Of a stretch of 60,604 bases of DNA, positions 1 through 7,872 are shown piece by piece. The stretch is from the NCBI GenBank assembly GCA_026985555.1, contig JALSQF010000003.1, positions 1 through 60,604 of the forward strand. The letters are read 5' to 3'. How positions within the stretch are numbered: the first letter of the stretch is position 1; each line of letters starts with the position of its first letter. The stretch is from Candidatus Moraniibacteriota bacterium. GTDB taxonomy: Bacteria; Patescibacteriota; Minisyncoccia; Moranbacterales; UBA9337. The translations under genes and the position numbers were made by a program. The notes under the pieces were generated by a model. That model saw only the letters and a program-made list of their open reading frames with translations, searched no databases and was not told where the DNA came from.

Positions 1-4
1 AGTT

Positions 5-2266
5 GTGGCGCCGGAGCATGAATTAATTAATAATGAAAAATTAAGAATTAAAAATTGGGATGAAGTAGTTGGATATATTAAAAAAGCTAAGAATAAGACG
101 GAAATGGAGCGAATGGAAGCTAAGGAGAAAACGGGTGTAAAATTAGAAGGACTAGTAGCAGTTAATCCTGCCAATGGTGAAAAAATTCCTATTTTTGTAG
201 CTGATTATGTTTTGGGTGGCTATGGAACCGGAGCAATTATGGCCGTGCCAGCGCACGATGAAAGGGACTATGAATTCGCTACTTATTATAATAAGTCGCT
301 AAATGATGCAGAACGAGCACAGAAAAACGCAGAAAAAATTAAAATTAAACAAGTAATAGCACCAAGATTTGATGGTGAGGGAGATAATGTCATCAAAAAA
401 GACAAACCAATGACCGAACGAAAAATTGTAGATGTTATTATCAAGCACTGGAAAGAAGATAAATATTTTTGTTTAGACTGGTCTAAAAAATCACATAATA
501 AATGGTATAGTTTTGTAGTTGGAGGAGTAGAAAAAGATGAAACTTTAGAGGAGGCTGCTTTGCGTGAGGCTCAAGAAGAGAGTGGCTATAAAAACATGAG
601 AGTTGTTAAACGGATTGGTGGAGAAATACATAGTTATTTCTATGCTGCTCACAAAGGTGTCAATAGGGCGCCAGTGAAAAGAAATTGTATTTACATAGAA
701 TTATTAGATGACCAATGGGAGGAGCCAGCCGAAGAGCATGTCAAAAATCACGACGGTGTTTGGGTTGATAAAAATAAAGTTTCAGATTTTATTAATCTTC
801 CAGAGTTGAAATTATATTGGGATATTTTTACTGGTAAAAATAATGGTATTTTCACAGATAATGGTGAATTAATAAATTCTGGACAATTTGATGGAATGAA
901 TAATGAAGAAGCGAAGAAAAAAATAACTGAATTTGTGGGTGGAGAAATGACAGTTAATTATCGTTTGCGGGATTGGTCAATTTCTCGGCAGAGATATTGG
1001 GGTTGTCCCATACCAATAGTTTATTCTCCAGAGGGAAAAGCAAAGTTTGTCGGAGAAGAAAATTTACCTTGGCTTTTACCAGAAGATGTGGATTTTGTGC
1101 CAGATGGGACAGCGCCTCTGGCTAAATCTAAAGAGCTAAAAGAAAGGGTGAAAAAAATATTTGGTAAAGGTTGGACGCCAGAGGTGGATACTATGGATAC
1201 TTTTGTAGATTCTAGTTGGTATTTTTTACGTTATCCTGATCCGGAAAATGATCAGGAATTTTGCGCATCAGAAAAATTAAAAAGATGGTTGCCGGTAGAT
1301 TTATATATTGGTGGCGCGGAGCATACTTATATGCATTTGCTTTACGCGAGATTTTTTGTAAAAGCGATGCATAAAATGAAGTTGTTAGAATTTGATGAAC
1401 CATTTATGAAATTGCGTCATCAAGGAATGGTTTTAGATAAAAATGGAGTGAAAATGAGTAAGTCCAAAGGAAATGTTATTAATCCCAATGATATGGTAGA
1501 AAAATTTGGCGCTGATGCTACTCGGATGTATATGATGTTTGCTGGTCCGTTAGAAGAAGATATTATGTTTAAAGAGGAAGGTGTAAAAGGTGTTTATCGG
1601 TTTTTGGAAAAAGTTTTCTCTCTTTTTGAGAGGGCGCAAACAGGCGCAGAATTTACACAGACTAATGAGGACGGAAAACAAATAAAAGTAAAAATAGAAT
1701 TTAGAGACTGTGAAAATGAAAATTGCAAGGATGTTCCCCAAAACTTTTTATCTTTATGGCATAAAACTATTAAAGGTGTCACAGAAGACATAGAAAATTT
1801 AAGATTTAACACGGCAATTTCTAAATTGATGATATTCATCAATGAATGTACTAAGCACAATGTTTTGCCAAAATCAGTGATGGAAGGATTTTTAATTTTA
1901 TTATCTCCTTTTGCGCCTCATCTTGCGGAGGAACTTTTTACTGCGTTGCAGTCGCAGACTATTGCTGAACTAACGCGGAATGACGCGGAAAAGAATGTTA
2001 ATGAAAAAAGTTTAAATAACATAGACTCTATTTTCAATCAATCTTGGCCAAAATATAATCCAGAAATAATTCAAGATAAAATTGTAGAAATGGTCATTCA
2101 AATCAATGGCAAGGTGCGAGATAAGATGCAGGTTCCAATGGATATTTCTGAAGAAGAGGTTAAAGAAAAAGCTTTAAATTCTGAAAAAATTAAAAAATAT
2201 ACGGAAGGTAAAAAAATTAAAAAAGTAATTTTCGTAAAAGGAAAGCTTATTAGTTTAGTGGTTTAA
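5..2266 (+). CDS. leuS: Leucine--tRNA ligase, 5'-truncated by the window edge, with an inserted Nudix domain
   Basis: CP1 motifs (IPIFVADYVL, GTGAIMAVPAHDERD), RLRDWSISRQRYWGCPIP, DTMDTFVDSSWY, KMSKSKGN, and C-terminal VIQINGKVRD. The HIGH motif lies upstream of the window. Nudix box at 521-589. Confidence 0.97.
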   Translation: MAPEHELINNEKLRIKNWDEVVGYIKKAKNKTEMERMEAKEKTGVKLEGLVAVNPANGEKIPIFVADYVLGGYGTGAIMAVPAHDERDYEFATYYNKSLNDAERAQKNAEKIKIKQVIAPRFDGEGDNVIKKDKPMTERKIVDVIIKHWKEDKYFCLDWSKKSHNKWYSFVVGGVEKDETLEEAALREAQEESGYKNMRVVKRIGGEIHSYFYAAHKGVNRAPVKRNCIYIELLDDQWEEPAEEHVKNHDGVWVDKNKVSDFINLPELKLYWDIFTGKNNGIFTDNGELINSGQFDGMNNEEAKKKITEFVGGEMTVNYRLRDWSISRQRYWGCPIPIVYSPEGKAKFVGEENLPWLLPEDVDFVPDGTAPLAKSKELKERVKKIFGKGWTPEVDTMDTFVDSSWYFLRYPDPENDQEFCASEKLKRWLPVDLYIGGAEHTYMHLLYARFFVKAMHKMKLLEFDEPFMKLRHQGMVLDKNGVKMSKSKGNVINPNDMVEKFGADATRMYMMFAGPLEEDIMFKEEGVKGVYRFLEKVFSLFERAQTGAEFTQTNEDGKQIKVKIEFRDCENENCKDVPQNFLSLWHKTIKGVTEDIENLRFNTAISKLMIFINECTKHNVLPKSVMEGFLILLSPFAPHLAEELFTALQSQTIAELTRNDAEKNVNEKSLNNIDSIFNQSWPKYNPEIIQDKIVEMVIQINGKVRDKMQVPMDISEEEVKEKALNSEKIKKYTEGKKIKKVIFVKGKLISLVV
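296..333 (+). repeat. In-frame 4 x heptamer repeat element in leuS, copy 1
   Basis: tcgctaa(296), atgcaga(306), gcacaga(317), acgcaga(327); spacing 10/11/10; encodes SLNDAERAQKNAE. Confidence 0.65.
1634..1671 (+). repeat. In-frame 4 x heptamer repeat element in leuS, copy 2
   Basis: gcgcaaa(1634), gcgcaga(1644), acacaga(1655), atgagga(1665); spacing 10/11/10; encodes AQTGAEFTQTNED. Confidence 0.65.
1952..1989 (+). repeat. In-frame 4 x heptamer repeat element in leuS, copy 3
   Basis: tcgcaga(1952), ttgctga(1962), acgcgga(1973), acgcgga(1983); spacing 10/11/10; encodes SQTIAELTRNDAE. Confidence 0.65.
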
Positions 2267-6207: not shown

Positions 6208-7872
6208 TTATTTATTTAGATATTTAAACAAATAAGTATCTTTTAATCTATAACCTAATTTTCTATAATAATTGCGTACACCTACACCAGAGATTACTAC
6301 TATTTTATTTAATTTATATTTTGAATGAACAATTTTTTCTGCTTCTTGAATAAGTTTTTTTCCTAAACCAAAATGTTGAGGAGATTGTTTTTCTTTTCTT
6401 CCTATGGAAATAAGTTTTCCATAGGTATGCACTTCTCTAATAAGAGCAGCCTTTTTCAAAACAGGTAATTTTTTGTATAATTCTTTGTTCTGAAAAGAGG
6501 GAATGCGTAAACGTAATAAAGCGTATATTTTTTGAGTAGTAGGATGAATAAATTGTAAAAATATTTCTTTTCCTTGTGAAGCTTCATATTCAATTTTATC
6601 TAAAATAATTTTGTCTTGAGAAGAAAAATCATTTTTAATTTCCCGACATCTAATACAGGAACAAGTTACTTTTTTTGCAATGATTTGACGTAAATTTGAT
6701 ATTTTAGGTCCAGCTTCAATGGAAGGAAGGGGAACATCACGCACTAATCTTTGAATGCGAACATAGGGAGGAATATACTTTCTTTTTATTTGAATAATTA
6801 ATTTTTCAAAAGTTTTATCAGTTAAAGGAGTATATTTTTTCTTTTTCCAAAGAGTATATAAATAAGAATTTTTGATTACTAAAGTAGGATAAATTTTTAA
6901 CATATCTGGTTGAAAATGGCTATTATGAAAGAGTTCAAAAAACATTTTTTCATCAGAAAAATCTGATTGATTTTTAAGAGAAGGCAATTTGGTAGTATTT
7001 GGAGTTCCATAAAGTCCTGGCATTATGTGATAATTAACTTTAAATCCAGCATCTTTAAGAAGTTGAGTGGCTTGAATAGTTTCTTTAACTAAATGTCCAC
7101 GTTTATTAAGAAGAAGAATTTTATCAAAAATAGATTGTACTCCAATTTCCACACGAGTGCATCCTAATTGACGAAAATTAACAATTTCTTTTTCATTAAC
7201 ATAATCAGGTCTTGTCTCTAGAGTTAACCCAACAATATGGTGTTTATTTTTTTCATTACGTTTTTGTTCGTATTTTAATTGCTGTTTTAAAGTAGAAGAT
7301 TTTTTTGCAATCCGAGAGGATGTAAATTTAGAACGGGGATAATCATTGGCAGCGCGGAAACATTCTTTAATAAACCATTTTTGATAGTTTTTAGTGAAAT
7401 AAGAAAAAGTTCCTCCTATAACAATTAATTCAATTTTATCTAACGAATGTCCGTTCAATTCTAGGGCACGTAAACGAGATTGAACTTGTAAATAAGGATT
7501 AAATTTATTCATTACAGCTCTCATTACAGCCGGTTCATTGGGCAGATAACTTTTAGGCATATTTTGTGCAGAAGGACAAAAGATACATTTTCCAGGACAA
7601 GGATAAGGTTTAGTTAAAACAGCTACAATAGCTACTCCTGATTGAGTGCGGATAGCGCGAGAGAGCATTATTTTTTCTAACTTTTGCTGGCGCTTAATTT
7701 TTCTTTCTTTAATCATTTTTTCATAAAGCTCTCTCAGATCAGCGTTAGTGGGTTGAGGAATTTTTCTATTGTTGCAAAAACTTTTTTTAAAATTTAAAAA
7801 AGCGGTAGAATTAATAAAATCTTTTTTTATTGCTAACTGGATGAATTGTTGATAATCTTGTTTAAAAGACAT
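6208..7872 (-). CDS. elp3: Elp3-family radical SAM/KAT tRNA uridine(34) carboxymethyltransferase
   Basis: CPGKCIFC (CX3CX2C), GHSLDKIELIVIGGTF, LETRPDY, RVEIGVQS, LKIYPTLV, CIRCRE, REVHTYG, QHFGLGK, ISGVGVRNYYRKLGY. Start moved to the ATG at 7872 (MSFKQ) because the longer ORF overlaps the divergent gene. Confidence 0.95.
   Translation of the reverse strand: MSFKQDYQQFIQLAIKKDFINSTAFLNFKKSFCNNRKIPQPTNADLRELYEKMIKERKIKRQQKLEKIMLSRAIRTQSGVAIVAVLTKPYPCPGKCIFCPSAQNMPKSYLPNEPAVMRAVMNKFNPYLQVQSRLRALELNGHSLDKIELIVIGGTFSYFTKNYQKWFIKECFRAANDYPRSKFTSSRIAKKSSTLKQQLKYEQKRNEKNKHHIVGLTLETRPDYVNEKEIVNFRQLGCTRVEIGVQSIFDKILLLNKRGHLVKETIQATQLLKDAGFKVNYHIMPGLYGTPNTTKLPSLKNQSDFSDEKMFFELFHNSHFQPDMLKIYPTLVIKNSYLYTLWKKKKYTPLTDKTFEKLIIQIKRKYIPPYVRIQRLVRDVPLPSIEAGPKISNLRQIIAKKVTCSCIRCREIKNDFSSQDKIILDKIEYEASQGKEIFLQFIHPTTQKIYALLRLRIPSFQNKELYKKLPVLKKAALIREVHTYGKLISIGRKEKQSPQHFGLGKKLIQEAEKIVHSKYKLNKIVVISGVGVRNYYRKLGYRLKDTYLFKYLNK

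Follow-up and report, generated by a model that had tools for sequence, protein, structure and literature searches.

Rickettsia palindromic elements (RPEs) are repeats that are translated in frame in many genes (Ogata et al. 2000, reviewed in PMC10969869). Here, we analysed three 39-nt units (sites 1 to 3) within leuS, the gene of leucyl-tRNA synthetase (LeuRS), at the beginning of a 60,604-nt stretch of Candidatus Moraniibacteriota DNA that we call the window; its G+C content is 29%, and the genome is AT-rich and of the candidate phyla radiation (CPR)/Moranbacteria type. A reading of the sequence alone had likened these units to RPEs, and RPEs are still their closest published analogue: both are short dispersed repeats of reduced-genome bacteria that lie in frame in unrelated housekeeping genes, add peptides compatible with the fold and also occur in intergenic DNA. 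RPEs, however, are palindromes of ~100-150 bp without a known autonomous partner, whereas the units of the window are non-palindromic single arms of 39 nt. Unlike RPEs, the arm family has four phased boxes of 6-7 nt with non-complementary spacers, a full form that bears a nuclease, site specificity across divergent hosts, and CPR/Patescibacteria as its taxon. RPEs were set apart by layout and taxon, their consensus sequences not being compared.

The genomes of CPR bacteria are tiny and can accommodate very little selfish DNA. Unexplained additional segments are a known feature of their essential proteins; LeuRS and LepA are phylogenetic marker genes. We consider it likely that the three leuS segments represent single arms (solo arms) from a family of selfish insertion elements spread across the CPR, complete copies of which lie in frame, translated and unspliced, in essential genes. 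The element is apparently undescribed in the literature searched. A complete element consists of two inverted 39-nt arms, each with four CGCnGA boxes that follow one another at intervals of about a helical turn (10/11/10), and these arms bracket either almost nothing, in a form of ~85 nt that resembles a miniature inverted-repeat transposable element (MITE), or a complete GxxExxY PD-(D/E)XK nuclease gene. The element would stay in frame at particular sites of essential genes (LeuRS, LepA, RecG), where it would be translated as an extra loop or domain and never removed.

As in MITEs, the cargo-less pairs of ~85 nt share their ends with a longer coding form, and genic in-frame copies occur; terminal inverted repeats shared with the coding form, the candidate autonomous element, are present in the family and absent from the solo arms of the window. 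Unlike MITEs, the element left no target-site duplication at site 1, and its protein is a GxxExxY PD-(D/E)XK protein and not a known transposase. With inteins and homing-endonuclease genes it has in common that a nuclease inserts in frame at conserved sites of essential genes (an aminoacyl-tRNA synthetase, a translation GTPase and a helicase) and that, as in homing, the same site is filled in divergent hosts by inserts that are more similar than the hosts and do not co-diverge with them. In contrast to inteins, no splicing domain is found among the Pfam matches, the insert seems to be retained in the mature protein, repeat arrays form its bounds, and the nuclease is of the GxxExxY and not of the LAGLIDADG or HNH type. 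The intervening sequence (IVS) in the 23S rRNA of Coxiella burnetii (S23p; PMC4990558) is likewise a small selfish insert in an essential gene, with a small open reading frame (ORF) downstream of heptamer repeats that vary in number, and its GACAGAT can be set beside the CACAGAT boxes of one free-standing GxxExxY relative (L099). The IVS differs in its rRNA location, its excision by RNase III and its four-helix-bundle ORF, whereas the element described here lies in an intact protein-coding frame.

The survey for arms covered the 60-kb window, 100 related loci (L numbers) and an exact-pattern scan of public genome contigs. LeuRS orthologs (P numbers; P0001 corresponds to L042) were retrieved (n=120), 26 of which were used for the ortholog alignment, and the array survey used 123 LeuRS sequences; X1-X3 denote public read runs. 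Each of the three units in the window has four CGCnGA-type boxes at offsets 0/10/21/31, and all three lie on the plus strand and in one frame of leuS, the reading frame of which is intact. Our direct reading thus agrees with the sequence-only reading, which had placed three in-frame units of four heptamers at 296, 1634 and 1952 (Table 1). The inserted blocks extend over ~293-337 (KSLNDAERAQKNAEK) at site 1, ~1637-1696 at site 2 and ~1952-2023 at site 3, and the arm stretch predicted to be translated in LeuRS under read-through is SLNDAERAQKNAEK. By direct count, the units have a G+C content of 44-51% vs the 29% of the window, where the observed/expected ratio of CpG is 0.76.

Table 1. Coordinates of the arm copies, their host gene and associated features in the window
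Feature	Position (nt)	Strand	Description
Arm copy 1 (site 1)	296..334	+	DNA TCGCTAAatgATGCAGAacgaGCACAGAaaaACGCAGAa; peptide SLNDAERAQKNAE; external matrix score 40.8 bits
Arm copy 2 (site 2), most decayed	1634..1672	+	DNA GCGCAAAcagGCGCAGAatttACACAGActaATGAGGAc; peptide AQTGAEFTQTNED; external matrix score 17.8 bits
Arm copy 3 (site 3), best preserved	1952..1990	+	DNA TCGCAGActaTTGCTGAactaACGCGGAatgACGCGGAa; peptide SQTIAELTRNDAE; external matrix score 52.6 bits
leuS, 3' 754 codons and stop (5' end outside the window)	2..2266	+	ORF listing; Pfam tRNA-synt_1_2, tRNA-synt_1, Anticodon_1, NUDIX
NUDIX hydrolase domain inserted in LeuRS, 8 codons 3' of arm copy 1	356..850	+	Pfam PF00293 at residues 162-260 (nt 485-781)
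Tract of 448 nt without mismatch to L042 leuS, from before arm copy 1 into the NUDIX insert	89..536	+	Sliding identity profile, mismatch list

An external matrix of 39 columns, for which five GxxExxY-flanking arms of other genomes (L042, L043) were the only input, ranked the three arms of the window first to third among ~121,000 positions on both strands (Table 1), and the next site scored 7.9 bits. In triplet shuffles (n=200) the maximum score averaged 4.2 bits and was at most 14.5 bits. A chance or compositional resemblance of three short stretches in a long gene could draw on copy 2, which at 17.8 bits is barely above the best shuffle; its L042 ortholog is more canonical (GCGCAGActaACACAGAatttACGCGGActaATGCGGAc), as are the orthologous copies in L042, L083 and L001 compared with the window arms generally, and all three sites coincide with insertions defined by the orthologs. 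We give this explanation a negligible probability and reject it by means of the matrix for copies 1 and 3 and by means of the L042 ortholog for copy 2. With a matrix made of the twelve heptamers in the window itself, the arms scored 33-41 bits and the next site 12.9 bits, a test that is circular.

Matrix scans of both strands detected no further arm copies in the other 58 kb of the window, and Tandem Repeats Finder detected no other GC-rich box array there, although it also misses the arms themselves, which are too degenerate for it. No minus-strand score rose above background in leuS or anywhere in the window that would have marked an inverted partner, including a degenerate or 3' arm, and tblastn yielded no match of the GxxExxY domain within the window. 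The window copies are solo arms, without an inverted partner or a nuclease gene. The element had been described as non-palindromic from the sequence alone, which has to be corrected: complete members consist of two inverted arms, and it is only the window that has single ones.

In the alignment of 26 orthologs, the three segments are lineage-specific insertions located in variable regions, which bears out the earlier suggestion of insertions into tolerant parts of LeuRS. The alternative that they are ancestral LeuRS sequence fails because they are absent from orthologs below ~70% identity. The closest relatives carry the segments, often in a more canonical form (ESRTNADDTQTNADR, ESQTDADSTRTDAEE, SLTNTTATQSQKDADLTQTNAEETQIDAEK). 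Site 1 is empty in orthologs below this identity. An insert at site 2 is confined to the window, P0001, P0004 and P0003, in the last of which it is degenerate. Site 3 has an insert, with a variable number of units, in P0001-P0006 and P0097, and none in P0007-P0009 or in orthologs that are more distant. The LeuRS sequences of the array survey have at least seven arm-bearing sites. As a separate observation, P0012, P0014 and P0077 have a different short insert at site 3 (SFAKATADEGKYDKYK), and P0013 and P0014 have another one at site 2 (DSSPISNFQFPISNQFSSSNDQ); these inserts of distant orthologs may stem from other repeat families of CPR bacteria and be translated in the same way.

Because the length of the array at a single LeuRS site varies from 9 to 56 residues (9 in L056, 31 in P0007 and 56 in P0011; 2 to ~14 units), arrays also expand and contract. 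The arrays might then have arisen locally, as coding minisatellites, through replication slippage of a 21-nt unit at each site. The range of unit numbers does speak for slippage once arrays exist, and the 21-nt double period equals 7 codons and keeps the reading frame. A local origin is nevertheless very improbable: units with this 39-nt layout are also present in unrelated genes, between genes and next to the nuclease genes of many CPR genomes; these loci have in common a first box TCGCAGA, a centre GCAGAAC-AACGCAGA and a spacing of 10/11/10; the matrix from foreign arms detects the window copies, which stand out by their G+C content from the gene around them; and the empty allele of site 1 in run X2 (EFAKKY/KIK) contains no proto-unit from which an array could have grown.

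The sequence-only reading had pointed to similar repeats beside GxxExxY genes in CPR genomes, and the same four-box arm does flank GxxExxY domains. P0001, an ortholog with 90% identity, has a PF13366 domain inside LeuRS. This 124-aa GxxExxY domain (TIGR04256 over its full length, 113.8 bits) is inserted in frame where the CP1 editing domain of L042 begins and is bracketed by TCGCAGAttcAAGCAGAacaaACGCAGAacgATGCGGA and an inverted copy of TCGCAGAttcAAGCAGAacaaACGCAGAacgATGCGGA, with the same four-box 0/10/21/31 layout as in the window. Because the layout of the 39-nt unit in the window matches that of the arms flanking the GxxExxY domain in orthologs, we interpret the unit as a terminal arm of this cassette. 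Inverted arms around an in-frame GxxExxY domain are likewise found in P0035, L085 and L086, at one LeuRS site, and P0035 has in addition a cargo-less inverted arm pair near its N terminus.

The in-gene form of the GxxExxY cassette has no start or stop codon of its own, and the GxxExxY, PD and ExK motifs are invariant in 22/22 cassette copies. An AlphaFold2 (AF2) model of the domain reached a predicted local distance difference test (pLDDT) score of 93.5, and its fold matches PD-(D/E)XK nucleases (lambda-exonuclease type, Cas4, Hjc) with a template modelling score of about 0.5. Searches yielded no sequence relative of the domain with a solved structure, and the fold matches PD-(D/E)XK proteins only generally, with no finer assignment. 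Judging from the invariant motifs and the model, the nuclease is probably active. The Pfam lists of the cassette-bearing LeuRS proteins P0001 and P0035 contain PF13366 and no Hint/intein family, and the cassette junctions (...K[SH]FS / SATS...) lack the Cys/Ser/Thr plus His-Asn pattern.

The nearest relatives of the LeuRS cassette form groups according to host and are found in three further LeuRS with an identical junction (...SATS[IL]EVFTTRPDT), thirteen LepA, one RecG and three free-standing small ORFs. All thirteen LepA cassettes occupy one site in the G domain. Cassettes at the same junction of LeuRS hosts that share ~50% of their core residues are 76-80% identical, and for 78 LepA pairs the mean identity was 68% between cassettes and 45% between hosts, with the cassettes being more alike than the hosts in 77 of them and no correlation between the two identities (r = 0.10). 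Because the cassettes are far more alike than their hosts in both LeuRS and LepA, this pattern of identities indicates that they spread horizontally and in a site-specific manner. In the cassette tree, which is poorly resolved, host labels are clustered (3 changes vs 8.3 in shuffles), and the RecG copy is nested among the LepA copies. Taken together with the invariant motifs and the fold, these comparisons point to a functional nuclease gene with horizontal spread to fixed sites.

When the two arms of a pair are compared (n=18 pairs), identity is 88% at the CGCnGA positions and 35% in the spacers. Phased boxes bound by a protein would explain such a pattern better than would a hairpin of DNA or RNA, and same-face binding by a protein at the 10.5-nt period appears plausible. 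The in-frame cassettes of LeuRS, LepA and RecG all have CGCnGA arrays with four boxes per arm, and the free-standing GxxExxY relatives have other box arrays, CACAGAT (L099) and GCTGAT; box sequence thus differs between nuclease lineages. We suggest that the phased boxes are recognised by the GxxExxY nuclease, which would thereby bring about a homing-like or transposition-like spread, and that solo arms would originate from internal deletion or from arm-only insertion.

Action of the arms as RNA, either as hairpins that RNase III would cut, as it does the 23S rRNA intervening sequences, or as regulatory structures of the mRNA, would be in keeping with the folding of paired arms at -30 to -65 kcal/mol and with the Coxiella 23S IVS, in which tandem GACAGAT heptamers lie upstream of a small ORF and RNase III cuts (PMC4990558). 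The window arms, having no inverted partner, can form no hairpin, in pairs the boxes alone are complementary, and cleavage of the mRNA of an essential gene would be harmful. Changes of the G.U and A.C kind are present in the proportion of 43 vs 40, showing no asymmetry, and most differences are spacer transversions; a hairpin formed by the RNA of one strand was rejected on these grounds. Because of the contrast between boxes and spacers and the lack of a G.U strand asymmetry, we favour protein-binding boxes over a hairpin and regard an RNA function as very improbable.

An exact search for CGCAGAN5GCAGAACNAACGCAGA in one genome each from 185,579 species yielded 38 loci, almost all of them in CPR metagenome-assembled genomes, and the same pattern had no match among 2.9 million viral contigs. 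A phage vector was rejected on the latter result. Inverted pairs with 3-35 nt between the arms are the most frequent form in the 38 loci. Of 105 distinct arms, about one half lie between genes or in short ORFs and the other half well inside long ORFs. The hosts with in-frame arms include other LeuRS, TsaD, GlyA (serine hydroxymethyltransferase), PheS, a Mur ligase, RNase H, RsmE and a P-type ATPase, and cargo-less pairs occur in frame in TsaD, GlyA, PheS, LepA and RecG and also between genes. The suspicion of a short mobile or selfish repeat, raised from the window alone, is thereby upheld: the unit is dispersed and apparently selfish, in many unrelated genes and in intergenic CPR DNA.

None of the six reading frames of the box has a stop codon, and an in-frame arm pair reads approximately [AS]QxxAExTQxxAEK[FI]xRxSASS[PQ]RxSA. 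In 49/52 intragenic arms, the frame used is one of only two among the six possible. This frame bias fits selection for a hydrophilic reading. Arms would be tolerated for two reasons, namely that their boxes are free of stops and that genic copies persist almost only in the xQxxAE (forward) or SAxxxRxSA (reverse) frame, which would yield short hydrophilic segments in variable regions of proteins. In a P-type ATPase of another CPR genome (L077, ~991-1232), reverse-frame arms give the hydrophobic readings FCVVLRSFCVDLR and LQWSAFSLLKSA in the membrane region; such a reading appears to be tolerated in a membrane protein.

A strongly non-random use of frames could also mean that the segments benefit LeuRS, as flexible acidic linkers or as helices for the binding of tRNA or a partner, and are kept by selection on the protein. 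They are in frame, copies 2 and 3 are identical in three samples (runs X1-X3), and in an AF2 model of the window LeuRS fragment, which is weak with an overall pLDDT of 68.6, a helix extends through sites 2 and 3. The same model has pLDDT values <50 at residues 102-110 (site 1) and 657-673 (site 3), and the low confidence and the helix extension would fit tolerated variable regions. We regard a benefit to LeuRS as very unlikely to be the explanation: between genes the same DNA unit is found in every frame, and its protein hosts belong to no fewer than nine unrelated families; a near-identical strain does without the insert at site 1; the boxes of copies 1 and 2 are decaying towards A/T; and the confidence of the model is low at sites 1 and 3. 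If the segments are solo arms of a selfish family, the copies in the window would be inherited, slowly decaying passengers that are gained and lost by homologous recombination between strains, and they most likely do nothing for LeuRS.

The public reads, among which no RNA run contains the stretch, show both states of site 1. In run X2, a 595-nt contig with a depth of 50 matches the window at 120-279 (95%) and 335-560 (99%), and in this empty allele, found in contigs of X2 and X1, window positions 280-334 are replaced by the 10 nt GAAGAAATAT, reading EFAKKY/KIKIKQ. The filled allele differs from the empty one in that KKY is replaced by TYYNK and the arm. The empty site 1 of X2 resembles that of distant orthologs in a strain that is otherwise 99-100% identical, and seven substitutions are clustered beside it at 202-244. 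Run X1 contains both alleles, the filled one at a depth of 19 and the empty one at 31, which together account for the depth of the shared flank (49).

The leuS gene of the window is a mosaic in comparison with its relatives. L042 leuS is ~89% identical to the window outside the mismatch-free tract listed in Table 1, and this tract looks like the product of a recent recombination. Compared with L083, the window is ~100% identical over positions 900-2200, where copies 2 and 3 lie, and only ~80% identical over positions 1-350. Because site 1 is polymorphic and leuS is a mosaic, we conclude that homologous recombination between strains reshuffles the arms and the inserted domains.

Several points weigh against a selfish element spread by a nuclease. 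The link to the nuclease comes from orthologs and other genomes, as the 60-kb window has neither a GxxExxY gene nor an inverted arm; the function of PF13366/GxxExxY is listed as unknown (PMC3424549); and translation of the arms is deduced from intact frames. The comparison of filled with empty alleles of site 1 revealed no target-site duplication. The frame census is not one of independent events, many arms being inherited orthologous copies, and the high conservation of the cassettes could stem in part from strong constraint and not from transfer. In L083, L042, L043 and the window, all arms are inside leuS and none is present in ~10 kb of flanks, a clustering that simple random insertion leaves unexplained.

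A selfish element that persists in this way would account for a class of extra segments in CPR proteins, namely as translated, unspliced pieces of a nuclease-bearing repeat element that spreads to fixed sites. For annotation, it would mean that arms create spurious lineage-specific motifs and break assemblies, and for phylogenetics that a marker gene, leuS, is here a recombinant mosaic around inserts. The large family PF13366 would gain a candidate DNA substrate in the arms, and domain swaps in protein evolution would recur at the same places. More tentatively, and with somewhat more doubt than belief, we propose that GxxExxY nucleases and phased arrays together represent an undescribed class of mobile elements, in which the boxes bind the nuclease, each lineage homes to one site (the CP1 start of LeuRS, the G domain of LepA, or RecG) and sites marked by arms admit the exchange of whole domains. 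If true, essential genes would harbour a third kind of lifestyle: introns are removed as RNA and inteins as protein, and this element would be retained and translated. The domains exchanged in LeuRS would then be NUDIX, nucleotidyltransferase-like, serine hydrolase and Ham1 domains, and the element would drive modular protein evolution in CPR bacteria.

Domains other than GxxExxY were observed at these places in several LeuRS orthologs. L083, the closest relative, is not alignable to the window at ~350-850 and is 97.5% identical from 809 onwards; at its positions 7170-7830, it has an unrelated domain of ~165 aa (a faint match to PF10706, nucleotidyltransferase-like) instead of NUDIX, a whole-domain swap between near-identical genes. 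In P0010, a NUDIX domain is located at site 3 of the window (residues ~1042-1210, between FAPH..EEL and SIFNQSWPKYN) and not after site 1, so that an inserted enzyme domain occupies different arm-marked sites depending on the lineage. P0003, P0006 and P0010 have a serine-hydrolase domain (PF06821/PF12146) at residues ~245-450, at the CP1-start site that elsewhere is the place of the GxxExxY cassette, and in P0003 it is followed at the same junction by the 3' arm SCQSASSASSPRSSATS. Other LeuRS orthologs carry Ham1 (PF01725) or PF14907 domains.

The site of the GxxExxY cassette in relatives falls just upstream of the first base of the window, at a distance of about 15 codons. In runs X1-X3, the read depth over positions 1-80 is several-fold above that downstream (the observation covers positions 1-118), and contigs of these runs stop within 9 nt of the first base of the window. 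The start of the window may be an assembly break caused by strain variation or by a repeat just upstream.

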